This document shows positions 1-36,444 of a stretch of DNA of 36,444 bases, piece by piece. A program made the position numbers and the translations under genes. The first letter of the stretch is position 1; every line of letters starts with the position of its first letter. The notes under the pieces were generated by a model, which was given only the letters and a program-made list of their open reading frames with translations, was not told where the DNA came from and made no database searches. Source of the DNA: Chrysochromulina tobinii (lineage: Eukaryota); NCBI GenBank assembly GCA_001275005.1, contig JWZX01003333.1, positions 1-36,444 of the forward strand, in the 5' to 3' direction.

Positions 1-62
1 AATTGACGAAACCCAGATCGGGTAGCAATTGACGAAACCTGCCCGCGGTGATTGACGAAACC
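1..62. repeat. Three short direct repeats (A)ATTGACGAAACC in the 3' non-coding region of the element
   Basis: Copies at 1-13, 27-39 and 51-62 with unrelated 11-13 nt spacers, plus a degenerate ATGATGAGAACC near 75-86. Confidence 0.8.
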
Positions 63-220
63 TTGGTCGTGGCCATGATGAGAACCCCATGCGTAGCGGG
101 GGGCTCGTAGAGCCCGCCCTCATCAAGGGCCATCTCCCGTCCCGCGAAGCGCGTCCCCACTCCTCAGCTCTCGAGCTGACCGTCCCTGTGCGTGAGTCGG
201 TTCCTTCCGGCAGCGGGTCG

Positions 221-1351
221 CTACCGGAATGATGCCGGCTGCACCCAACCCTTGCACAGGGTTTCCAAGTCCGCCCCGGCGGCGTCGCCCACTGCGGCGG
301 AGCCACTGAGGTGGGCCTCGGCTAGGGCTCGCTGGTAGATGAATGCTATGTCCGAGTGCCAGCGCCCCCTCTGGGTGATGATCCTCTCGGCGTCAGCCTT
401 GAAGACGTCGCGCCAGTCCGTGGCGCCCCCGATCCTGAAGCTGCTGGCCCCGAATTCGTACGGTTCGAGGCCCAGCGCCCTCGCCATGGCCTGCGCCAGC
501 TGGCGCGTGTCGATCGTGTTCCACCCCGCGCCGCTCCGGCTGAGGAAGAAGGGTTTGTCGGTGAGGGCTCCCTCCACGCGTCCCAGGGTGGGCGGCTCGG
601 TGCCGCTGCTTGCCCGCCATGCCAGAACGACCGCGTCGTATGTGCACAGCGGGTCCGACCCGATTGCTCCCCCCGCCTGCCGGCGTCGCACCGCCATGGG
701 GCAGACGCGCCGACGAGCCACTACGTCCTTGATCGGGACGACGTCCCACGTGAGCCAGGGGAGGTGGTTGCTATCCGCGCATGGCGCCTTGAACTCGATG
801 ACGCCGAAGGAGGCGTCTCGGGTCGCGTCCCATTGCTTGCCCTCGACCACACCGAGCTCGCCTCCGCGAAGGAGGAGGTTGTGGGCGACTAGCGCCGCTG
901 CCCATTCGATCATGCCACGGGCTGACGACCGATCGTATCCTATCGCCGCCAGGCTGCGCAGCATTGCGGCCCGAATGCCGCGCTTGAGCCGGCGCGTCCC
1001 TGGTGGGGCCTGCAGCTGTCGCGCGCGCTTGGAGGCTGCGGGCGCCAGCATGTTGACCTGCTGCATCGTGACCACGTAGTGGGCTTCGCAGCTCCGTAGT
1101 ATCTTGATGGCGGACACGTACCCGTCCACCGTGTCGCTGTTGAGTGGGGTGCCGAGACGGTGCCGCTGCCGCGACCCCTTGCGCCTGATGTATTCGGCGA
1201 AGAGGTCGAGCGTGTCCTGGTTGTAGCGCGCCGCGAGCATGTCCGCAGCGTGCTCCAACGGCATGAAGGGCGTCCTCCCGGTGGCCCGGAGAAAGTCTCG
1301 GAACCACTCGAGAGCGGTGCCCAGCCTGTTGCAATCCCAAGTCTCTCGCAC
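221..1351 (-). CDS. Tyrosine recombinase of the retroelement (true N-terminus probably continues in the 1352-1783 frame)
   Basis: Catalytic motifs LLRGGEL (Arg), IKD (Lys), SSFRIGGAT (the HSFRIGGAT box with His replaced) and GRWHSDIAFIY (Trp and catalytic Tyr). Confidence 0.92.
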   Translation of the reverse strand: MRETWDCNRLGTALEWFRDFLRATGRTPFMPLEHAADMLAARYNQDTLDLFAEYIRRKGSRQRHRLGTPLNSDTVDGYVSAIKILRSCEAHYVVTMQQVNMLAPAASKRARQLQAPPGTRRLKRGIRAAMLRSLAAIGYDRSSARGMIEWAAALVAHNLLLRGGELGVVEGKQWDATRDASFGVIEFKAPCADSNHLPWLTWDVVPIKDVVARRRVCPMAVRRRQAGGAIGSDPLCTYDAVVLAWRASSGTEPPTLGRVEGALTDKPFFLSRSGAGWNTIDTRQLAQAMARALGLEPYEFGASSFRIGGATDWRDVFKADAERIITQRGRWHSDIAFIYQRALAEAHLSGSAAVGDAAGADLETLCKGWVQPASFR

Positions 1352-1783
1352 CCGTTTTGGTAAGGCTCTTGCGGAGGTCCGCTAGTAGCTCTCCTCCTCC
1401 CGGCTCGGCTGCCCCGCTGATAAAACCGTCGGCAATCGCTGCTCCGAGTTCGCCCAGCATGCCGCACTCGCTCGCGAGCTGCTCAACCCGTTGCATTTGC
1501 AGTGCGAATGCGACGCTCCAGCCCGTTTGCACCGTAATCACCGGCCGCGTCGTTGCGGCTGGTTGTCGTGGCGCCGTCCGCGGTGTCCCTGATCCCAATC
1601 CCAAAATATGCGCTTTGAGCTGTGCTTCGCCGCTCCCTCGATGGCCGCGCGCGTCCTCGCGGTCGCGGTCGGCCTTCGAAGGTGGCTGCCCGTTGCGCAG
1701 CGCCCTGTGTCCCCGCTGAAGCTCCTCGCGCAGCTGGTTCACCAGGGACGAGCCCGTCGAGACCAGTCGTCTGTTACGTGAGC
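1352..1783 (-). CDS. Probable N-terminal extension of the YR ORF, opened by a splice acceptor at 1784 and joined to the YR frame by a +1 discontinuity near 1355
   Basis: The frame of ORF 771..1742 reads as helical protein (WSVAFALQMQRVEQLASECGMLGELGAAIADGF...LLADLRKSLTK). Removing one A from AAAA near 1355-1358 gives TKRVRETWDCNRLGTALEWF in the YR frame. Confidence 0.55.
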
Positions 1784-1868
1784 CTGCGTGGGCGCGTGAT
1801 TCGGTCAGTCTCCGTCAGTCCCCGTAGGGCAGCGCGCGCTGCTGGCGTGCTGCTGCTGCGTGCTGTTG

Positions 1869-4800
1869 CTATCCCCTTCCCTCCTCGGGCGGATCGCCGC
1901 GAGTGAGTGCTCCCGTTCCAAGCGCTACCGCCCGACGCAGCGCCTCCCACATCTCCGGTGTGATGTGGGCGCGTCTGACGCTCAGGCTCGCCGCCTCCGC
2001 GTCTGCAACCACCGCTGCCGGAATGCGCCAGCCGGCGCCGTCAGCCAGTGCGGTGGGGTGGCTCAGTCTGTCCGCGTCCACGTTCAGCTCGCGCGGCACC
2101 GCCACTCCCAGCCACAGCGTCGTCAGTTGACCCGCCTCGCGCAAGATGCTGCGCATCTGCGCCGTGGGGCTCGTCGCTGCGTTGAGGGCGGCCGCTGCCG
2201 GCGCGCAGTCACCGATGGCCGTGATCGCCGTCGCCCTGCGTCCTCTCTCGCTCGCTACTGCGTCGGCTACGGCGATGATGCCGAATAGCTCTGCTGCCGG
2301 CATCGAGAGTGACCCCCCTCCTGTTGGCACTGTCCCCGTCTCGGCCGCTCTGTCGAGCGCGGCCTGGATGTCCGCCGGCCACTTCTCAGAGACCAGCCAG
2401 ACTTCCCCGGGGCTGTTTGCGTCGAAGAGATATCCCCCGACCCCGTCGATGCCACTGGCGTCCGTGGTCACCGTATCCATTCCGAGCTCATCAAGTGCAG
2501 GGAATGACAGCTCGGGTGCGAGCGCCACCCCGACGTTGAGCTCGAGTAGCTCGGCTGCCACAGCCAGTAGCCCCAGCCAGTCGGTCTGCGCACTGCTACC
2601 TGTGCGTAGACGCATGCGGCGGAGGCGACGTCGCCGCCCGCCCGCTTGCCACGACGCCTTGGTGATGGCGTACCCTCCGTGTAGCACGGACTTGAGCTCT
2701 GGGAGAATCTGGGAGATGTTGACCAGCCGCCCTACCAGCGTCTCGGCGCGATCTCGGTCCACCTCGAGCGCCTCACGAGCTGCCTCTGCCTGCTTGGCCA
2801 GATCTGCCAGCATGGATGCCCGCTTGAGCGGCGGGCAGTCGATCCGCCTGGCCGCCCGGTCGATGCGCAGACCGAGCCCGATGACGGGGTCGCCCGCTAC
2901 CACCTTGTGGGGCGCCGCGTCGAGGCCTACGTCCCTGAGCCCCGCGACGGTGAGCTGCGCGTGTACGTACACGCGTGTGCTCGGGCTCGCCGCGGTTCCT
3001 CCCTCGGACCGGACCTGCTCCGGGCCGATGCTGATCCCTCGTACCTCGTCCGGCTCTGTCACCGGGTCGTCGAGTGCTGTGCCCATGAAATCATCAATGT
3101 ACACTTGCAGGTGACTGGGCATCGCCTGCACGTGTGCATTGGGTAGCTCCCCGCGAGCCTGGGCGGCGCGACGCTCGCTCATCCAGCGGCGAGCCGCCGG
3201 TGGCGGTGGCTGTGCCTCGTCGAACGCCGCCTGTTTCGTCCTAATGTGGGCCACGACCATGGTCGAGATGCGCTCGAACCTGTTGGGGGCGAAGGAGCCT
3301 CCGAACGCCGTCCGTCGGTCGACACAGATGCCTGCGCTGCCCTCTGCGTCCCACCACAAGAAGCACTGTTGCCACAGGTCCGCCTCTTGCGTGGGGCAGT
3401 ATCTATAGGCGGATTGGGCGTCTACCACGTACGAGCCCACTCGCGTTGCGTCGTCGCCAGCCGTGTCGCATATAGCTATCCCCCTCCCAAATTGCTGCAC
3501 CGTCGGCAGCTCCACCCAGCACTCGTGGTCGGGAACGCCGGCGTTCACCGACCGATCCCCGCCGTTGCTGCTGTCCTGGGTGACGCGCGGCTTCGGGTAG
3601 AGCTCGAGTGTAGGTTCTCCGCCACTCTCGCTCGGCACCAGCCTCGACCGTTCCTGCATGACGACGTTCCTCGGTAGGAGGCGGCACGGGACAAAAGGCA
3701 GGTGGCGGATCGGCTGATCTACCCACTGCTCCGCGATATCCGTCGCGACCGCCCGCTCGGCTGCGTCCACGTTCTCGATGAGCCCCAGGTGGTGGAATGC
3801 CAACACCGTGTCGAGCGGACAGTCTGAGCGTGACTCTATCCCGCCCTCGCCGACCTGGCTCACGATGTCACGATCGTGCCAGTCTAGCGCGGCTGCCACC
3901 GCCCGAAATGCGGCGCGGTCGATTTGCTTCCCCCCCTTGAACGTCGTGTGCCTCGTCGAGGGCGTCACCAGCTTGCAGTCAAGGGGGTCGGAGCAGTTCC
4001 AGACCACTCCCTGTGCCCACGTCCGCATCTGCTCTTGCCCGATGGTTCGAGTGGGGACCGCCGGTGGTGTGCGGCCCTCTTTTAGAGCTTTGGCCGCCCT
4101 GTCTGCGAGCTGTAGCCACGGCGTCACGATCCCGTCGTACACACCATCGAGGTACAGCTCCCCGATTGCGATGCTGCCCGCCCGTATGCGCTCTGCGCGT
4201 TCCACCGCGTGCTCTTCAGCTCCTGGCTGCGGCGGGCGCATGTGCGGCCTTGGCTTCCCCTTCGGCTTGCTTGGCGCTTGCGCTGGCCAGTGCATGCCCA
4301 CGGGGAACGCCTCGTGCCGGAGGCTCTCCAGCGATGCCGGCCTGCGGTTGCGCATAGACGCAAAGCGCGGTGGGCGGTGCCTGGCTTCCTCGCACGCTCG
4401 TGCGACCCCTGGACCCAGCCGCGGTCCGTCTGCCACGCGGCCGCCCCCGAGTGCCGCCGCTGCTCCCCTGCTGAGCTGGTGCTGCCCCTCCTCTTCCCTG
4501 CGCTCGCGTGCTCTCGCCGTCAGCGCGGATGCCAAGAAGGCGTTCATCGCGAGCGGGTAGGCGGCTGATGCCGCTGAGAGCGAGGATCCGTCGGCTGCCC
4601 GGCCGTGAGCCCGTCCGTCGTGCGCTGTCGCGCCGTGGTCGCACGGACGTTGGCGCAGCGGTGCCAGCAGCCCCTCGAGGTCCGATGAGTACGCGACCGT
4701 CGTCCATTTCTGCGTGGTGGCCCCAAATGCACACTGCGCAAACGTGGCTTCGCGCGCCCCTGCTGCTCCAGCGATCGCGGTCGCCACCGCCGGCTGTAGC

Positions 4801-6350
4801 CACAGCGGTGCGTGATCCGCGTGTTTCTCCCAAAAGGCCGGCGATCGTCGGTCGCCCCGATCCGCAGGATTCTCGATCACCCACGAGGCGCCCGCCGCAT
4901 GCGCTGCCGCCACCAGATCCGCCGTGAACTGTGCAAGTTCATTGTGCTTCCCCAAGTACCTCGCCCACTCGCTCGGCGTGTTCTGCAGACCAAGGGGCTG
5001 CCGCCGCGAGCGCAGCTGCGGCCGGTGAGCTATCGAGTAGCTCTGGCAAGGCGTGGCGATGAACACAGACGTGAAATCGCCGCGCCGCACCGCGTCAAGC
5101 AGGTGGCGGCGTGGCTGTGGCCTGAGCACGTTGTGTTGTTCACCGCCCTGCTTCGTGTCGATCGCCACCACGTGGAGCCCTCGAGCTCTCAGGTGTGCAG
5201 CGAGGTCCCGTTCGCTCCCCGGTCCGGCGAACACGATGAGCACCTTTGCCCATCCCGTGTCAGTCGTGTCGACTTGATCCGTGCTCGCCTCGCTCGTCGC
5301 GCTGTCATCGCTTGCCTCGCTCTGGTCGCTATCCCGTTGGCTGTCCTCTGCGTCTCCAACCCGGTCCATCATCCCCGCCGCCGCCGCCATCATCCCCGCC
5401 GCCGCCGCCCCGGCTCCAGCGGTCACGGACTCGCCCCCAGCTAAGGAGAAGAATCTTGAACCGGTGCTGAGAGCGGGCGGCTGCGACGGTGATGAGGGCG
5501 GCAAGGCAACAGCGAGCTGACTGGCCACGTCGTCCGCTTGCGCGCACCTGGTGGAGATCCAGCTGGCAATCGCGTCACCGTGGCAGCGGCTGGGGCTGCA
5601 CCCGCAGCGTAGCCACAGCGTCTCCCCCTTGCGCGCCCGCTCGGCCAGCCAGCTGAGCGCCAGCAGTCGGCTCTGTGGCGGCGTCCGAGTGCTCTTGGCG
5701 TGTGGCGGGGGCAGTCCTCTGGTGCGTGCGATCTGCTCTGGCGTCGACGCGCCTCGTAGCAGTTCCCCATATCCGTCGACCACCGCGTCCCGTTGGGCTT
5801 CACCGTGCATGAGCAGCGGGTTGCCGAACACTCCCATTTGATCTCCAGATCGCCGAATGTCGATCTCCCCAGTCACAAAAGCGTCGCCTGGTCCCAGTAC
5901 GACCACGCGACCGGCGGATGTGAGTGCCGTCTCGCTTGTATTCGCCGCGGCCGGCGGCGCGGCTATCGTTTCGTGCCTCGCCTCGGCGCGTATGCTTGTG
6001 CCCGCGCCGACGTGTGGCGGTTTGACCACTGAGATGGTGGCCTCGACCAACACGGCTGCAAAGGCGACGCGCGGAGGTTGCCTCCTGCGACGATCCAACC
6101 CCCCAAGTGCTTGCCCAGCTGGCTCGACCCTGCGCTTGTCCCCGGCTTCCGCTGTTGATGTGTTAGCTCGTTGCCCAGCGGCCTCTTCTGCTGGCTCAGC
6201 CCTGTTACCGCTCGACCCCGTTGAGGTCGACGGCTCGCCTTCGCCCGCAGCGTGTCGCCGCTCCCTGTCCAGGTACGCGTCGAGTCGTGCCTCGAAGCCA
6301 CCCTCCTGACCCAGCCCCGGCAGCGGATCGCTGCCTGGGCTGGCAATTTC
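1869..6350 (-). CDS. Pol polyprotein: DUF4326-like, C5 DNA methyltransferase, reverse transcriptase, RNase H
   Basis: The frame stays open from 6350, 84 codons upstream of the TTG at 6098. DUF4326-like DIRRS..FGNP...LRCGCSPSRCHGDAI (~5550-5880). MTase VLIVFAGPG, TPCQSYS, IENP, QCAFG, AAYP (~4530-5250). RT VVDAQSAYR, FGGSFAPNRF, VYIDD (~3090-3430). RNase H TTDASG, AAELFG, IGDC, NVDADRLSH (~2060-2470). Confidence 0.92.
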   Translation of the reverse strand, partial: EIASPGSDPLPGLGQEGGFEARLDAYLDRERRHAAGEGEPSTSTGSSGNRAEPAEEAAGQRANTSTAEAGDKRRVEPAGQALGGLDRRRRQPPRVAFAAVLVEATISVVKPPHVGAGTSIRAEARHETIAAPPAAANTSETALTSAGRVVVLGPGDAFVTGEIDIRRSGDQMGVFGNPLLMHGEAQRDAVVDGYGELLRGASTPEQIARTRGLPPPHAKSTRTPPQSRLLALSWLAERARKGETLWLRCGCSPSRCHGDAIASWISTRCAQADDVASQLAVALPPSSPSQPPALSTGSRFFSLAGGESVTAGAGAAAAGMMAAAAGMMDRVGDAEDSQRDSDQSEASDDSATSEASTDQVDTTDTGWAKVLIVFAGPGSERDLAAHLRARGLHVVAIDTKQGGEQHNVLRPQPRRHLLDAVRRGDFTSVFIATPCQSYSIAHRPQLRSRRQPLGLQNTPSEWARYLGKHNELAQFTADLVAAAHAAGASWVIENPADRGDRRSPAFWEKHADHAPLWLQPAVATAIAGAAGAREATFAQCAFGATTQKWTTVAYSSDLEGLLAPLRQRPCDHGATAHDGRAHGRAADGSSLSAASAAYPLAMNAFLASALTARARERREEEGQHQLSRGAAAALGGGRVADGPRLGPGVARACEEARHRPPRFASMRNRRPASLESLRHEAFPVGMHWPAQAPSKPKGKPRPHMRPPQPGAEEHAVERAERIRAGSIAIGELYLDGVYDGIVTPWLQLADRAAKALKEGRTPPAVPTRTIGQEQMRTWAQGVVWNCSDPLDCKLVTPSTRHTTFKGGKQIDRAAFRAVAAALDWHDRDIVSQVGEGGIESRSDCPLDTVLAFHHLGLIENVDAAERAVATDIAEQWVDQPIRHLPFVPCRLLPRNVVMQERSRLVPSESGGEPTLELYPKPRVTQDSSNGGDRSVNAGVPDHECWVELPTVQQFGRGIAICDTAGDDATRVGSYVVDAQSAYRYCPTQEADLWQQCFLWWDAEGSAGICVDRRTAFGGSFAPNRFERISTMVVAHIRTKQAAFDEAQPPPPAARRWMSERRAAQARGELPNAHVQAMPSHLQVYIDDFMGTALDDPVTEPDEVRGISIGPEQVRSEGGTAASPSTRVYVHAQLTVAGLRDVGLDAAPHKVVAGDPVIGLGLRIDRAARRIDCPPLKRASMLADLAKQAEAAREALEVDRDRAETLVGRLVNISQILPELKSVLHGGYAITKASWQAGGRRRRLRRMRLRTGSSAQTDWLGLLAVAAELLELNVGVALAPELSFPALDELGMDTVTTDASGIDGVGGYLFDANSPGEVWLVSEKWPADIQAALDRAAETGTVPTGGGSLSMPAAELFGIIAVADAVASERGRRATAITAIGDCAPAAAALNAATSPTAQMRSILREAGQLTTLWLGVAVPRELNVDADRLSHPTALADGAGWRIPAAVVADAEAASLSVRRAHITPEMWEALRRAVALGTGALTRGDPPEEGRG

Positions 6351-6353
6351 TCA
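6311..6353 (-). promoter_or_regulatory. Putative UGA readthrough signal: stop codon, 7 nt spacer, 14 bp stem-loop
   Basis: Minus strand reads TGA GAAATTG CCAGCCC-A-GGCAGCG-ATC-CGCTGCC-G-GGGCTGG, and gag and pol are in the same frame. Confidence 0.65.
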
Positions 6354-9300
6354 GATCTTGGCCTGTAGCGAGGCGACGCACGCTGCCCTTACCTTGTCCA
6401 GTGTGCCAGGCGGTACCGCCGGTGCTCCCCCGGCCTTTTTGGCCATGTCCGCCTGTGTCGTGCACGAGCGGCATGGTGGCGAGCCGATCGCTCCGCCCTT
6501 GCAGCCGCACGCGAATGCCGCGAATGCGCACGGCAGTTGGGCGTTCGAGAGGGTCGGGTGTGCTAGCCGGAGGAGATAGTCGAAGTGCTCGACCGCTCCC
6601 AGCCTCTTCGTCTTCTTGTCGATCAGCATCGTGATGCTGTTCGCCGCGAACGAAGGGACCCACGCGCGTCCGGCCGCTGCCGCCGCTGCTGCCGCCGCCG
6701 CTGATGTCGCGGCAGCTGCCGCCGCCGCCGCCGCCGTCCCGGCCGTCGTCGTCGACGTTGCCGCCGGTGTCCCCCCTGCCTTGGCCGCCTCGAGCTTGGC
6801 TGCGTATTCAAGCCGTCGCCGTTCCCCACGTGGTACCTTGGCGTCGCCCTCGGCGGTGATCACCGGCGCCTTGTGCTTGTTTCCCGCGGCCAGCGCCTCT
6901 GCTGCTGCTTGCTTGCCCGCGCGGGCCCCCGCCTCCTCCGAGTGCTCTTCACGACCGAGTGCCTCGAGCTTCTCGCGCATGTCGACCTCGATGAGCGATG
7001 CCCATCCAGTTTCGAGCACATTCGCGCGCGAGCGCTGGTGGCGTGCGCCGCGGTCCGCTCGCTGGAACAAGTCCTCAAAGAGCTCAGTCGCCTTGACGAC
7101 GGTGAGCTCTCCGAGTGCGTCTCGGGCGAGGTCGTGCATCCCGTAGTCCTCACGGGTGCCCCCGTCCTCACCGAGGGCCTTGACGCGGATCGCGAGGAGG
7201 ATCGTCCCGAGATGCATCATCGCAGTCTCGATGTCCGACGTCGCCTTCGGGCCGGTGGTTGTCCCCCAGTGGCCCGCTCCCGACTTCGAGCTCTTTGTGG
7301 CCCTGTTGTTGCTGGGTTTGGTGGACCCGAGCAGCTTGACAATCAGGGCGAAGTCGACAGACTTGCTCCCCCCCTCGACCTTCACCGCACCCGCGAGGGA
7401 TGATGTGAGGATGGCGAGAGAGAGTGCCTCGATCTCCCCCGTGCATTCCCCCGCCCGCTCCTCGGTGACGAGGCGTTCGATGAACGCCTCGATGAACGCG
7501 AGGAGCCCCTGTTGTGCCAGTAGAACCGGCGCTGCGATGGAACCTGCGAGGTCACAAGTGTGTTACCGCGTCAGCTTCCCCGACGACTGTGCGCGGCGGA
7601 TCGCTCGCGACAGTGTCGCCCCCGTTCGTCCCCGTCGCCCCGTGCGTCCCCTGTTGCTCCCGTTTCCCGATGGGCACGAGCCGGGTTTGGGTCGCTCTGG
7701 TCCAATCACTCCACGCGCCGTGCTGGGCGGTACGCTGCGACTGTCCCTTCGCTCCCCGCCCTCGTCTGCGCCCTGTTGGTTTGCTCCCCCGCGCTGTGTC
7801 TTGTGTGTGTGGGTGTGCGTGTTCGAGTGTGCGGCGCGCACCGTTGCCCGCGAGCGCGTCCTTGTACGAGCCGTCGGATGACATGAGCGCTCTCGCGGCG
7901 TCGCCGTACGAGGTGCCGACGATCCTTCGCGCCTCGTCGATCGGGTCGGCGCTGTGCTCCGCTGCTGCTTCTGCTTCCACGACCCCGGGCTCAGTCAGCT
8001 GCGTAATGATGGATGCCGCGCAAGAGAGCGCCGCCGTCGCCATCGAAGTACGCCGCACGAGCTTGACGCGAGCCGGATCGGCTTCGCTGCCCGCGTCCTT
8101 GAACGCGATCTTGTCCGGCTTGCCCGGCGAGATCTTTGTGTTCTGGTACGCCGTGATGATCTGGCGGAGCCTGTTGCCTGCTTCACGCCAGTCAGGTGGT
8201 GGTAGCTCAAAGTTGACGCCCGCTCCTTTGAGGATGATCGCGTAGTCTTCCCCGGCCGAGGTCGCCATCTCCTCGGCGGTGTCCCCTGCGAAGAGTGCGC
8301 CGGCTGGAGGCCTGCCCACCGCTGCCGCCATCGTGTCTGCCAGCAGCTGCAGCGTGGCGCCCCGTGCTTGTGCAATTTTCTCCCATGCTGCCCCCGGTGT
8401 CACCGTGCCGGTGTTCGCCGGCCTTAAAAAGGGCAGCGTCTCCGTCCACGCGGTCGTCGGTGGCCGTGGGGGCGGTGCTGTGCCCCTTGGTGCCGTTGGC
8501 GCCCCTCCCCCCAGTGCTGCCGCGGCGGCCGCCGCCGCCGCCGCTGTGGTTGCCGCCGCGATTGTTGCCGTGGTGGCCGCGGCCGCCGCGAGTGCCGCCG
8601 TGGCTGCCGCCGCTGTCGCGGACTTGGCCTCGGCCGATCCGATCGACTTCGCGAGCGCCTCGCCTACGCCAGACGGACCCAGCGTAACCCCCAGCAAGGA
8701 TGAAAGGCTCGCCGACATCTTGGCTGTGTCCCCGATGGTGGCTGAGTCAAGTGAGTCCACCAAGTCGCCGATGGCCGACTTGAGTGCCTCGGCCGCCCGG
8801 TAGAGCTGTGATTTTGGTTCGTCGTGTGTGCCCCCCGGGTCGCCCGCTCCGAGGTGTGCAAACACCACTGCGAGGGGCCGTTCGATAGCAGGATCCCCAG
8901 TGAGCCCAGCCACAAACCCCGCATAGTCGGTGACACCGGTATGCACCCCACGCGTTCCGATGTCGGAACCGATCGTCGTCAGAGCCGCGATGCGCATGAG
9001 CGCGTTCGGTCCGGTTGCCAGGTTGCCCAGTAGGATCTTTGCCGCGATTGCGACGGCTTCGGTCGGTACGCCGGCTGCCGCTTATGATCGGGCGGCGTGA
9101 TGTTCGTCCCAGCCCAGTGTTCCCAGATGTTTGGTCCCATGATTGCCTCGAGGTCGTTAAGCTTTCGCATGACCACGGTGCCTCCAATCTTCAATTGGAC
9201 TGCCTCGAGAGGGCCGGTGCTGAGCACGGGCTCGATGGTGACGCCCCAGCCCCATTCCTGTGGCCAGCGTCGCCGCCCGCGCTCCGCGTTTGAGCCCCGA

Positions 9301-9624
9301 GGTGATGCAGCCCACCATCGCTCTTATCGCTCCAGCTGTATTCATCGCTTCTTCTGTGAGCTCTTCCGTCGCCGAACTGTTGTCGGCCTTCGAGACGGTG
9401 ATCTTCAGGTTCTTCTGATCCCCGGTCTTGATGTTGGTGGGGATGTACCGCCAAGAATCGGTCCCGCCAAATCTCATCCAGACGATCGACCCCTTGAGGA
9501 GGTCTCTGGTTTCTCCCATTTTGGTGCTGTCAAATAATGCTGGCTTCGCGGGCGTGTCGCCCGCTGCCGGGTCCAGCACGAGGCCTGCCGCCTCGCGTGC
9601 CGTCCGACCCACTTCCTTGAGCAT
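6351..9624 (-). CDS. Gag-like ORF1 of the retroelement; exons ~9624-7842 and 7543-6351, with two compensating frame discontinuities near 9245 and 9083
   Basis: Position upstream of pol, Ala-rich linkers and a C-terminal Cys cluster (LPCAFAAFACGCKGGAIGSPPCRSC). ORFs 9157..9624, 8979..9227, 7552..8997 and 6351..7385 join into one protein. The Gag identity is positional only. Confidence 0.65.
7544..7841 (-). other. Spliceosomal intron (298 nt, phase 1) inside the gag-like ORF
   Basis: Donor AACG|GTGCGC at 7841, branch GCTGAC at 7575-7570, acceptor CTCGCAG|GT at 7544. Removal gives ...KDALAGN-G-SIAAPVLLAQQGLLAFIE..., in frame with ORF 6351..7385. Confidence 0.75.
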
Positions 9625-10032
9625 AGCCTTCCCGAAAAAAGAAGGAGAGGCTGCGCCCGCGCTGCCTGTCGCACGCTGTCAAGTGGCGACGAGCCCTTGA
9701 TCTTCGTGAGGGATGGGGATTTCGTTTCCACGTTCCAGACGTTCACAGCACCTGTGAGGGGGCCGGCTGTGATTGTGGTTTTTGCTTATCCCCTGGCTTA
9801 TACCCCGTATAGCTGTGACCTAGATCTGCTGGACCCAGTGTCGTGACCACGCCGTCGGCTCGACGCTCCCGGGGACACTTCACCCCCTCGGGCACAGCCC
9901 AAGGACCCACCCTGCGGCAAAAGATCGTCGAGGTGTCCGACTTTTTCATGTACATGTATAGTAACGTCCGAACATCGGGTCGCGTCGGACTCCGAGGATT
10001 TCCGGACGCCAGCTCTCCTGCGCGCCGACGAG

Positions 10033-10881
10033 ATGCCAGTCATCCTGCCCGTGCCCACCGCCGAGGGCGTCGACGAGCCGTCCATCGCCGATAGCAGTGC
10101 GCTCCACAAAGAGAGTCCGCGATATTGCGAACTCGTGCGGCAGGCGCTGGCGATGCGCGCGGGCGTTGGCTTCGGCGACGTTGAGCGGCTTGACGCCTTC
10201 CGGCTAACGGGGCCGGACAACCACGGGCGCCCCGTGTTCATGTTCCTTCCGGCTGCGATCCCCGAGACGGAAGAGACAGAGGCCATCGTCGAGAAGCTCA
10301 CGCTCTACGTGCTCTCGCTGGTACATGATCTGGTAGTCAACCAGCAGCAGGGCTACACGGCCATCTGGATGTGCAACAACCACTCAGAGTCGCGGCCGCT
10401 CTCCGCCCGCTGGTTCTACAAGATGCATCGATGCGTGCCGTACTGCTACCACGAGCGCCTCGCCGGCCTCTGCCTGGTGCACCCGTCGGTCACCGTGCGC
10501 TGCCTGATCTTTCTGCTCTCGTACCTGCCGCGCGTCTCGTTTTGGGAAAAGCTCAACTACTGCGACCGTCTCGAGTTCCTGGACGCGGACGTGCCGGTCG
10601 CGCTCATCAAGACCGTGCCACAGCTCTACAAGGACTACGACAAGCAGCTCGACCGCGAGATGTACGAGAGCTCGGACCGGCTCGGCGCGGGCGGCGCCCT
10701 CGGCGGAAGCAGTATGGCGGGCATGGCAGGCATGGGCGGACTGCCCGGCGGGCTGGGCATGGGTGTCGGCGGCATGGGCATGGGTGGCGTGCCTGGCGTC
10801 TACGGCGGCGCGAGCGCCGAGGGCGAGCAGTCGGTGCGGCCTAAGGTGGACCTGCCCAAGCGCAATTGGGAGACGGACTGA
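10033..10881 (+). CDS. CRAL-TRIO/BCH (Sec14-like) domain protein with a Gly/Met-rich tail
   Basis: GPDNHGRPVFMFL, YHERLAGLCLVHPS and SFWEKLNYCDRLEFL resemble the BCH/CRAL_TRIO_2 consensus; clean 282 aa ORF. Confidence 0.85.
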   Translation: MPVILPVPTAEGVDEPSIADSSALHKESPRYCELVRQALAMRAGVGFGDVERLDAFRLTGPDNHGRPVFMFLPAAIPETEETEAIVEKLTLYVLSLVHDLVVNQQQGYTAIWMCNNHSESRPLSARWFYKMHRCVPYCYHERLAGLCLVHPSVTVRCLIFLLSYLPRVSFWEKLNYCDRLEFLDADVPVALIKTVPQLYKDYDKQLDREMYESSDRLGAGGALGGSSMAGMAGMGGLPGGLGMGVGGMGMGGVPGVYGGASAEGEQSVRPKVDLPKRNWETD

Positions 10882-11213
10882 GAGAGATAACTTACAGTAG
10901 AGAATCAGGTCTTAGAAATCGCCAGAGGCCAGTCCGCTGCCTCTCGTGGCACTCGACGGTTTTCCTATACCTCGTTGTCAGCCCCGGTGTCAGCCGCGCC
11001 TCGTGCGCGTGCATGCAATTGCGTGCATGCTCGTGCGCGGGGGAGCGCGGCTCCCTGAAAGCGACACTGCTTAACTCAGGAAAGCCTCTTCAAGTTTCGA
11101 ACCAAAGAATTCACTCCTCACCTGTTTCCCCACAGGGGAGTCGGCCCGGCTCGCTCGGCCACCATTCACAATGAGAAAGGAGGGGCTGCAAAAGAATTTC
11201 GCCCGAAGCGCGA

Positions 11214-12425
11214 ATGTCAACTGTGGACCCGTCGAGGCTCAAGGTCTCGGAGCTCAAGGCCATCCTGCGCGAGCGAAATGTGGCATTTGAAGGTGCGGTC
11301 GAGCGGCAGGACCTGCTTGATCTTGTGATGCAGAGCGGTGGGCTTCCAGGGACAGCGAGCAAGGCAGGAGCTGGCCGGAAAGAGCGCAAAGCATCCGGCA
11401 TACCGAGTGCGGATCGCCAGCGTCAGGATGAGAAGGGCGAAGCGGCCTACTTGCGCCTCGTTGCGGCAGCAGACGTGCTGAAGATCAGCGTGGACGCGGC
11501 TGATGATGTCGTCAAAGCGGCTCACACAAGGCTTGCAAAGGAACACCACCCGGACCGTGTGGGAGCGGACGATCGGGAGAGGGCAACGGCGCTCTTCATC
11601 GAGGCGCAGGCGGCATTCGAGCTGATCGTGTCGGTGCCGCATAAAGCGCGCGCCCACGCTATGCGCACCGCCAAACGGAAGTTGGCTGCTCGTCAGCAGG
11701 CCACAGCTGCCGCGGGGCTGAGCAGCGGCACAGAGCTCAGCAGCCCAGATGACGTGCCGGAGACGTGGCCCGAGTTGGTCTCAGCGTCAGATGCAGAGCA
11801 GCAGGCGTCGACGGCGCATCGTCATCGGAGAGCTCCGCCGCCGCAACAGCAAGACCAGGCCCCAAGGCGTGCCCAAGACGGCGGGACGCCGAGACGAGGC
11901 CCCTCTCCCGTCGCGGGGACCCCAAGACGGAATCCGCAGCAGTTCCAGGACATCTTGGCGGAGGCGGCACGCGAAAGCACCAGGGCCGCCCGCCCTAAGT
12001 CTGCTCAGGCCATGGCTCAGGGACCAGTGCCGCAGGAGATGGAATCTCGCGCTGGACCGACCGATACGGGAGAGAACCGACGCGGCGATGGGTTTGACGA
12101 TGGGCTAGGCCCGTGCATCGAGGTCTTCACGTGCTTTGCATTCGGCTACATACTGTGCCAGGACGGTCTCAACCGGTGCACCAAGTGCGTCTGCACCTGC
12201 GGCGGCCTACTCGATATCTCCGAGGAGGAGCTGCGATCGTGGGGCTATCGCGTGGAGGAGCACCAGATCGCGCGCTACAGGCACGAGCCCCAGCTCCCAC
12301 GAGATGGAGCCGCGGCACATCGAGCGCAGGTGCGACGCGCGGCGCGGTCGCACACGCAGGAGTTCGAGCAGCAGCAGTACGCGGCGTCGGGGATTAAATC
12401 CCCGGCCGGGATGCACAGAGTTTAG
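11214..12425 (+). CDS. J-domain (DnaJ-type) protein with an N-terminal SAP-like helical motif
   Basis: VLKISVDAADDVVKAAHTRLAKEHHPDR...FIEAQAAFELI contains the HPD motif; the N-terminus has LKVSELKAILRERNVAFEGAVERQDLLDLV. Confidence 0.85.
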   Translation: MSTVDPSRLKVSELKAILRERNVAFEGAVERQDLLDLVMQSGGLPGTASKAGAGRKERKASGIPSADRQRQDEKGEAAYLRLVAAADVLKISVDAADDVVKAAHTRLAKEHHPDRVGADDRERATALFIEAQAAFELIVSVPHKARAHAMRTAKRKLAARQQATAAAGLSSGTELSSPDDVPETWPELVSASDAEQQASTAHRHRRAPPPQQQDQAPRRAQDGGTPRRGPSPVAGTPRRNPQQFQDILAEAARESTRAARPKSAQAMAQGPVPQEMESRAGPTDTGENRRGDGFDDGLGPCIEVFTCFAFGYILCQDGLNRCTKCVCTCGGLLDISEEELRSWGYRVEEHQIARYRHEPQLPRDGAAAHRAQVRRAARSHTQEFEQQQYAASGIKSPAGMHRV

Positions 12426-34963: not shown

Positions 34964-35968
34964 TCATGACCCGGCCCGGCTCGCGAGCGTGAGCGCGGTC
35001 TGACCGTGCAGTGGCCAGCGCAGCTGCGTCACCTGGCCGCGCGCGCCCGGCACTGCCGCGGCCACACCCGATGCGACGCCGGAAGCGACGCCGGAGAGCA
35101 TGCGCTGCGAGAGCCACATAGGGCCACTCTTGTACTTGCGATGCGCGGCGCCGCCCCACATCGCGTGCTCGTGCATGCGCTCGGTGCGGACTTGGATCTC
35201 AAACAGCTGCCCGTTCGGGAGCCGCAGGGTGTCATGGAGCCCCTGGTAGCCGTTGGGTTTGGGTCTCCGCACGTAGTCTTTGAAGCGCCCCTCGCCCACC
35301 GAAGGGTAAAGATGGCGGATGGCCGCGAGGGCTTCGTAGACGTCGGCGGCGTCCTCACCGCGCACGACCACGCGCACGGCCAGCACGTCGTGAACCGTCT
35401 TCTGACGCACCGTCGCCTTGTGGAACGTGCTCCACAAACCCTTTGAGCGCACGGCCACAGCGGCGTGCCGGAGCACGGGATGCTCGTTGCCCATGGCGCG
35501 GATCTGCTGCTTGGTGGACTCGAGGCACGCCTTCATGGCCTCCTGCGCGCCGAAGGCCTGCATCCGCCACTCACGCAGCAGCCAGTACGCCTCGGGCGAG
35601 ACGAGCGCCAGCATGATGTCGTCCGCAGGGATGTTTTGGAGCTGGAGCATCGAGTGCTTGAGCCTCAAGGCAACGGCGGACGACTTCAAACGCCTGGACG
35701 TCTCGTGGAGCAGCAGCGAAGGGAAGGTTGCCTGCACAGCGAGAGCACGTGGGGGCGTGCGCGTCTCAGCCAAAGTGGGGCGCTTGGATTGTTGCTGAAA
35801 CGTGGAGGGGGGCGGCGGCGCAAAGGGGTGGGGCCTTGGGCGCACCGAGAAAGAGGGCAACGTTTCCAATTGCAGTGCGGCGGTTGCCGTCGGTGCCAGT
35901 GCAACGCGCGAAAGTGCATTTGGCAACACGAACACGACCGCGGTTGCGATGAAGAGTGGGACGATCAT
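34964..35968 (-). CDS. RelA/SpoT homologue, (p)ppGpp synthetase domain, probably plastid-targeted
   Basis: RSKGLWSTFHK, VHDVLAVRVVV, KDYVRRPKPNGYQGLH and FEIQVRTERMHEHAMWGGAAHRKYK; hydrophobic N-terminus from Met at 35968. Confidence 0.92.
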   Translation of the reverse strand: MIVPLFIATAVVFVLPNALSRVALAPTATAALQLETLPSFSVRPRPHPFAPPPPSTFQQQSKRPTLAETRTPPRALAVQATFPSLLLHETSRRLKSSAVALRLKHSMLQLQNIPADDIMLALVSPEAYWLLREWRMQAFGAQEAMKACLESTKQQIRAMGNEHPVLRHAAVAVRSKGLWSTFHKATVRQKTVHDVLAVRVVVRGEDAADVYEALAAIRHLYPSVGEGRFKDYVRRPKPNGYQGLHDTLRLPNGQLFEIQVRTERMHEHAMWGGAAHRKYKSGPMWLSQRMLSGVASGVASGVAAAVPGARGQVTQLRWPLHGQTALTLASRAGS

Positions 35969-36042
35969 CTGGACGGCCTCGAGTTTGGGGTCGGACGGAT
36001 GCAAGAATCCGGAAGGATACATGATACATGATGCATGATTCA

Positions 36043-36444
36043 TCAAGTCGATACGGAGGGACCCATGTTCTTTCCGACAAGAGCGTGGGTCATTCCGACA
36101 TGTTCATGAACTTGTCGGACATGTTCGATGATCAATACAAAGTCAGAATCACGTATTTGTGGTTGAATGGCCGTCATCTCATCCGCGTCCCAACATACTG
36201 CATCCTGCTCTAATGGCACTTCATCTGCATCCCAAGCCGCAACCCTTTGAAACCCTATGCTGCGAATCTCGGCCGGCATTGGCGCCACATGTCGAGGAGA
36301 GCGCGCAGGTGCGGAGGAACGCGCATGTTGCGGCGATCTCAACAAGGGTTGGGGGTGGCAGGTGCGCCAGAATGAGCTCGAGCAGGCCGAGCTCCTTGTC
36401 GCGCAGGTCGGTCAACATGGCGACACTGACAGCCACAACCTCGT
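36043..36444 (-). CDS. Partial F-box-like protein (5' end off the window; frame change between two ORFs)
   Basis: DLRDKELGLLELILAHLPPPTLVEIAATCAFLR is F-box-like; continuation into ORF 36043..36345 is uncertain. Confidence 0.4.

Follow-up and report, generated by a model that had tools for sequence, protein, structure and literature searches.

A predicted and conserved splice acceptor ahead of the tyrosine recombinase in a haptophyte retrotransposon, and its probable pairing with a donor in gag

Related elements and the haptophyte locus

Ngaro retrotransposons carry gag, a pol with reverse transcriptase (RT) and RNase H, and a separate downstream open reading frame (ORF) for a tyrosine recombinase (YR); the accessible text of PMC3783388 and PMC4157794 further describes repeats in the order A-coding-B-A-B, with the internal repeats behind YR, and no DDE integrase seen. 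Expression of the Ngaro recombinase by ribosomal frameshifting is a guess in print (Poulter and Butler 2015, as quoted in the excerpted text of PMC13003380). The subject of this study is an element of similar plan at the beginning of a contig of Chrysochromulina tobinii (JWZX01003333.1, assembly GCA_001275005.1), whose 36,444 nucleotides (nt) are together called the window. The element, on the minus strand and 9.7 kb long, runs from 9907 to 1, continues past the window end, and is a tyrosine-recombinase (DIRS-order) retrotransposon. Besides its haptophyte host, it differs from Ngaro in having a spliceosomal intron in gag, a C5-methyltransferase-like domain in Pol, and a YR that shows no -1 frame overlap with pol and is preceded by a conserved splice acceptor. 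With the donor seen in RNA, and both acceptor and donor conserved in relatives, we consider it probable that the recombinase is produced as a fusion to the N-terminal part of Gag, through splicing from 7841 to 1784.

The SymbioDIRS-Dnmt3 elements of Symbiodinium also have A-coding-B-A-B repeats and a separate YR ORF, and their Pol ORF combines RT with a cytosine methyltransferase, comparable to the probable one here; they belong to another host and are described as intronless, and the available sections of PMC5890265 give no splicing route to YR. Judged by features and not by trees, the present element appears to join a Ngaro-like layout to a SymbioDIRS-Dnmt3-like Pol, and is assigned to neither group. 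A YR with an N-terminal helical DNA-binding domain is shared with the ALOG-containing DIRS1-like retroposons, which differ in carrying an adenine methylase and a zinc ribbon (PMC3537659, accessible text).

The nearest known splice is that of murine leukemia virus, in which, according to the available sections of PMC10496198, a donor inside gag is joined to a distant acceptor in the SD' RNA, and the product, P50, links the N-terminal part of Gag to integrase sequence. P50 is accessory, and of a DDE integrase it keeps just the final 116 residues, whereas here the whole recombinase would result. Arabidopsis Ty1/Copia elements offer a further parallel, as conserved alternative splicing to a short GAG RNA sets the protein ratio and the unspliced RNA is the template; there, in contrast, splicing yields Gag alone and the integrase lies within Gag-Pol (PMC5580714, excerpted text). 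No report of YR expression by splicing was found by literature searches or in the accessible parts of PMC3783388, PMC3266345, PMC4157794, PMC6681497, PMC9210276, PMC3537659 and PMC7192593, the main YR-element reviews (Goodwin and Poulter 2004; Poulter and Goodwin 2005; Poulter and Butler 2015), Repbase notes and supplements lying outside the search. The present locus contributes a donor whose use is seen in RNA, an apparent frameshift explained away, and intronless relatives that retain the donor.

Splice sites in gag and a predicted acceptor ahead of the recombinase

The initial annotation postulated one donor, at 7841, serving two acceptors, at 7544 and 1784. All of its sites are in place, including the paired GACTGAC motifs and the 85-nt distance from the pol stop, and in the frames of gag, gag exon 2 and YR the donor and both acceptors all fall in phase 1. 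The RNA data comprise eight runs (six recorded as RNA, two untyped), those containing the stretch being freshwater samples, and all consist of assembled contigs and not raw reads; such contigs lose rare variants and show presence, not absence. In three of three polyA runs, X1, X2 and X3, all from one study, the donor (GTGCGC, 7836..7841, on the minus strand like every element feature below; context AACG/GTGCGC, the slash marking the splice boundary) is used and a GT-AG intron of 298 nt (7544..7841) is removed, the joint being given as 'skips 298'; run X14, of unrecorded type, retains the intron across the donor. The intron has a branch-like GCTGAC at 7575-7570 and an acceptor ...CCTCGCAG that ends at 7544, and the unspliced gag frame terminates inside it, at TGA 7554-7552. 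It separates gag exon 1 (7842..9624, ATG 9624; in the RNA strain, 594 codons and one further base) from gag exon 2 (6351..7543), which encodes a Cys-rich C-terminus and ends at TGA 6353-6351. The junction 7842/7543 again reads G/GT in phase 1, so that the spliced RNA could in principle donate twice (recursive splicing).

This first ORF with its Cys-rich end is conserved in seven families and is named gag by position; library searches gave no match to known Gag proteins. Exon 1 is homologous to the gag-like ORFs of the related loci L009/L010, L014, L017, L019, L025 and L047/L048. Against the RNA strain, one additional base near 9247 is confined to the window, and one base is absent at 9081/9082 in the window and in two metagenome DNA contigs, L001 and L002. 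The two contigs are identical to each other and 99.965% identical to the window at the same locus; possibly the window's own source, they are counted once. The base absent at 9081/9082 suggests that gag of the genomic copy is broken, the gag of the expressed strain being open, although the terminal repeats of the genomic copy are identical.

The predicted acceptor of the YR exon (1784..1792, ...CCCACGCAG ending at 1784) is the best-scoring site, and its use was not seen in the RNA contigs. It lies 85 nt past the pol stop TAG (1871-1869), behind two branch-like GACTGAC motifs at 1820-1814 and 1810-1804, the first of which contains the second in-frame stop, TGA 1817-1815. GACTGAC has three copies in the 9.7-kb element, two of them at this acceptor. 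A looser pattern, CTGAC-N8-35-YGCAG, is present at four acceptor positions (7544, 4498, 2003 and 1784), and taken by itself the motif therefore exceeds chance only modestly; the weight of the case comes from the relatives.

A scan based on YR alignments gave 79 loci, 69 with a YR start and 39 also with a pol stop 250 nt or more upstream, and dereplication at 90% YR identity left 30. In each, the most pyrimidine-rich YAG/G between pol stop and YR core was chosen, blind to frame. The acceptor so chosen is of phase 1 in 23 of the 30 loci, with the YR frame open in all 23; four are of phase 2, two of phase 0, and one locus is siteless. For this element the rule picks exactly 1784. The corresponding phase-1 counts are 12/71 in control windows of pol and 16/50 in the YR core, and 2000 codon shuffles gave a mean of 9.4 (standard deviation 2.4, maximum 18). 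Dereplication at 75% left a phase-1 acceptor in 20/26 loci. The acceptor and its phase are thus kept across relatives of 33-60% YR identity, in support of the initial annotation.

At the nucleotide level, 18 loci have a clade motif at the YR start (G-V-x-W-G or G..VxGRTxGG), and its Gly codon falls on YAG/G in 17 of them; the residue before this Gly varies (T, A, S, V, L, I), which argues for a constraint on nucleotides, not protein. The 18 loci include close pairs, and L009 and L010 were read at the GVRWG Gly; L025 has AAG at the motif Gly and a phase-1 TAG/G 27 nt upstream. A branch-like CTNAY stands 12-60 nt before 17/30 acceptors against 158/1326 pol windows, a count that does not serve as a main test, as seven acceptors were picked by protein motif and two loci fall outside the 30-locus set.

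The donor side of the argument comes from relatives in which gag is continuous across the position of the window's intron, namely four families (L009/L010, L014, L019, L025) and also L017. One donor with two acceptors, as proposed here, is accordingly special to this lineage. In the gag alignment the window's donor falls on the same Gly codon as the donor-like site of the relatives, which have AG/GT or AG/GC in phase 1 at this codon in 5/5 cases (AAAG/GTATCG in L014 and L019, AAAG/GTGTCG in L025, GCAG/GCATCG in L010, AAAG/GCGAGG in L017); at other columns a donor-like context occurs in at most three sequences, against five at the window's donor. The site is the only A/GGT among the 88, 51 and 108 Gly codons of L014, L019 and L025, and of the 172 residues identical in these three gags (43-50% amino acid identity) only the two site-forming codons have A or T as third base in every one, a pattern that speaks against shared descent as the sole cause. 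A donor kept in gags that have no local intron needs a distant partner. Among acceptors, only that ahead of YR was found conserved, and it has the phase of the donor; we infer that the two are paired. The short gag intron looks like a later gain at a pre-existing donor. An unrelated GT-AG phase-1 intron candidate of 295 nt is present in the gag of L017 (9627-9921), about 85 codons further down, and opens with the same six letters as the window's gag intron.

Downstream of the acceptor, the YR exon (221..1783) comprises about 95 codons of variable linker, ATG 1496, a conserved block from about 1490, and the catalytic domain. The +1 discontinuity near 1355 that the initial annotation left to be explained is a matter of one base: the A-run at 1355..1358 has an extra A in the window that is missing from L001, L002 and the contigs of 3/3 polyA runs, and a 98%-identical protein, P0003, reads through the position. 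The YR exon is therefore continuous once this window-only base is set aside. Since the extra base is confined to the window, the break was put down neither to programmed +1 frameshifting nor to a small intron.

Expression of the recombinase

We picture a single promoter in repeat A1, at the 5' end of the element, from which three RNAs would arise. The unspliced RNA would be the copy template, as the persistence of the intron in DNA suggests. The 7841-7544 splice seen in RNA would give Gag of about 990 residues, and Pol may follow by readthrough of TGA 6353. At a lower rate, the same donor would be joined to 1784, skipping gag exon 2 and all of pol; the predicted Gag-YR would consist of 594 codons from Gag, a Gly at the junction and 519 codons from YR, and be about 1,110 residues long. 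The Gag part would provide the start codon and would likely take the recombinase into the particle. Where relatives lack the short intron, Gag would come from the unspliced RNA and Gag-YR from the only splice.

Several observations weigh against this scheme. The phases and conserved sites of the 7841-to-1784 splice fit, but the junction 7842-1783 is in no contig of the eight runs. Contigs of X1, X2 and X3 run continuous over the short splice and pass 1784 unspliced, and the long splice is accordingly not the predominant form there; X4, X5 and X7 cover only short pieces of the element, and the absence of the junction from these three says little. Further joints in the RNA contigs, with flanks of 20-43 letters at GC-rich repeats, were set aside as noise. 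A fused Gag-YR protein was sought in protein sets at lengths up to 3125 amino acids (aa) and not found: none with gag occurs among five matches of 677-2000 aa, there are no matches at 1095-3125 aa, none is in the best 150 representatives, and a gag profile run on 259 proteins gave nothing below E 0.039. Genes in such sets are mostly called on DNA, which makes this absence weak evidence. On the acceptor side, 7/30 loci have no phase-1 best site, and the rule was fixed after the loci had been viewed. Seven other scoring rules were run for that reason; they return phase 1 in 19-26 of 30 loci, a count reached by 0-2 of 300 shuffles, and six of the seven again choose 1784 for this element. The donor test covers five families. 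By the MAG/GTRAGT consensus the donor is weak, like the window's proven donor, and is not top-ranked in 4/5 gags checked; GC replaces GT in two of the five relatives, and the distant L048 has no donor-like site (GACG/GA).

Some of these points would suit other routes to the recombinase. The acceptor evidence does not name its donor, and 1784 might be joined to a different phase-1 donor, for example that of a short leader exon near the gag start, giving YR with few Gag residues on the pattern of env-type subgenomic RNAs; the weakness of the conserved donor by consensus and its absence from L048 would agree with this. We nevertheless find it unlikely, as the proven donor is of phase 1 and sits at the conserved column, and no other gag column has a donor context in more than three sequences, a weak test with 5' parts from few families. 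Another route would be an RNA of its own, initiated within the 3' portion of pol and read from ATG 1496, with the acceptor-like site unused or incidental. This in-frame ATG stands just before the conserved YR block, so that in this copy the recombinase may have its own start, and the contigs unspliced at 1784 are also compatible with such an RNA. In X1 the contigs are broken at 2404-2375 and 2090-2061 and depth climbs toward the 3' end (86, 143, 206), as an internal promoter could also bring about. PolyA libraries, however, favour 3' ends, contig depth cannot reveal starts, and X2 and X3 are unbroken there. Homologues do not share the Met that precedes the conserved block (L006, L009, L010 and L071 have no Met upstream of the YR core), and the 95 codons upstream of ATG 1496 stay open in the window and, through an in-frame deletion, in P0003. 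Set against the conserved phase-1 acceptors as well, a separate RNA seems quite improbable.

Fusion of Pol to YR through ribosomal frameshifting or readthrough of stops, the route proposed for Ngaro by Poulter and Butler 2015 (quoted in the accessible text of PMC13003380), could draw on the frame shared by pol and YR here and in 14/30 loci. Two in-frame stops (1871 and 1817) lie between them in this element, for which such a fusion is already contradicted unless double readthrough occurs. Across the 30 loci, stops cut the YR frame from pol in 16, a single in-frame stop is found in six, and the frames overlap in eight, four in each direction; there is thus no common footing for frameshifting or readthrough, and we regard the Pol-YR fusion as highly improbable. 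A Pol-YR intron was also rejected: in 16/30 loci the final 300 nt of pol contain no phase-1 donor, and no position for one is common to the loci. In Chrysochromulina parva, a 95%-identical gene model (P0123) combines pol and YR pieces; its RT core and YR N-terminus are missing, and it was taken as an automatic mis-prediction and serves only to indicate the host. Together with the freshwater origin of the runs, it makes C. parva or a near relative the most likely host.

Layout, surroundings and significance

The class of the element is evident from its proteins and repeats. The YR model, with a predicted local distance difference test (pLDDT) score of 76, has Cre/Tre in Foldseek rows 1-9 (best E 4.5e-03 with prob 0.99; no row reaches E<=0.001), and Atlas places YR at 0.97-0.98 to Phage_integrase/ALOG clusters, an ALOG/Phage_integrase cluster being rank 2 at 0.98; the Pfam ALOG domain has no match in 33/33 YR members. 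Fold and Atlas matches together identify the tyrosine recombinase ORF that marks the DIRS order. The pol ORF (1869..6350, 1493 codons) follows the gag TGA in frame and encodes DUF4326 (Pfam E 1.7e-05), a cytosine-methyltransferase-like domain, RT and RNase H. Its model (pLDDT 82) matches retroviral and Ty3 RTs in Foldseek (human endogenous retrovirus HERV-K, Ty3, cauliflower mosaic virus CaMV; E 1.8e-09), and this fold match, with conserved motifs that we take to be IDD and TDASG, identifies the RT of long terminal repeat (LTR) type and the RNase H of YR retrotransposons.

The C5 DNA methyltransferase-like domain (4491..5258) stands before RT and has conserved motifs, presumably PC and ENP. 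Its Atlas score of 0.88 to PF00145 clusters is under the Atlas line of 0.9, and 10/10 named Atlas matches fall in one family or clan; the domain is likely a cytosine methyltransferase, the Atlas match being a lead only. No adenine (Dam-like) methyltransferase, which PAT-like elements with their split direct repeats have in pol and Ngaro lacks after RNase H, was detected in Pfam scans or Atlas, and the pol model ends soon after RNase H. Neither a DDE integrase nor a protease appeared in Pfam scans or the fold search, although Pfam overlooked RT and YR as well; sequence searches of Pfam and PDB returned nothing for YR, RT or gag. In L049 (282-5441) the methyltransferase-like domain comes after RT/RNase H and not before it, comparable to the two SymbioDIRS layouts.

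Gag exon 2, pol and the YR N-terminus share one frame in this element, separated by TGA 6353, TAG 1871 and TGA 1817. The arrangement is not kept among relatives: pol is out of frame with gag in 6/9 loci, and the frame offsets are distributed as 14, 11 and 5 of 30. An in-frame open stretch of 160-212 codons follows the gag stop in L009 (3119-3607), L015 (1025-1504), L019 (1644-2243) and L025 (3237-3872), and pol begins there in another frame. A third, pol-specific acceptor was rejected, as no phase bias precedes pol in the loci examined.

Self-comparison of L001 gives the order of the whole element as A1, coding region, B1, A2, a 167-nt spacer and B2. Repeat A1 (274 nt, 9634..9907) forms the 5' end, its counterparts in L001, 1465-1738 and 11593-11866, being 100% identical, with A2 beyond the window; the window holds the start of B1 (1..88), a repeat of 311 nt whose pair is likewise 100% identical in L001. 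These are split direct repeats, A1-coding-B1-A2-B2, with the internal repeats downstream of YR as in Ngaro; the inverted terminal repeats and internal complementary region of DIRS1-like elements were not found, L001 self-comparison giving direct repeats only. RNA contigs of X1-X3 terminate at 9696-9706, inside A1. Repeat B has five TTCGTCAAT copies at 23-35 nt spacing (window 1-62; L001 11311-11430 and 12063-12182). The motif is present at all in 15/79 loci; in 12 loci besides this one it follows YR, with copies on the same strand or on both strands, and the L017 version is a near-palindrome. It is a candidate recombinase binding site. In L009, L014, L017 and L047 the gag start comes after the YR end, and L017 and L047 each open and close with one and the same sequence (units of 11,014 and 13,321 nt), which makes them tandem or collapsed copies.

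A CRAL-TRIO gene (9847-10881, plus strand) lies head to head with the element; RNA contigs begin near 10005 and 9700, and the two share a short promoter region. Further along the window are a DnaJ-domain ORF (11175-12425, plus strand), many short tandem arrays between 13850 and 33590 with units of 10-12 nt and a common acceptor-like tail, probably host introns, and a RelA/SpoT-domain ORF (34964-36103, minus strand). Viral contigs scanned for the element pattern gave six matches, none confirmed.

An RNA-proven donor together with a widely conserved acceptor defines one exact, testable junction, and Chrysochromulina is a genus with cultured strains. Beyond this element, we incline slightly towards the view that splicing out pol is the standard ancestral integrase route of the haptophyte-type clade, perhaps of YR retrotransposons at large, in place of the frameshift model; this lineage would then have gained a second acceptor, making Gag dependent on splicing and leaving the unspliced RNA as template only. 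If the proposed splicing is true, the integrase of these elements would be a Gag fusion, the starts of YR ORFs would be mis-annotated in such elements, and spliced and unspliced RNA would be handled as in retroviruses.

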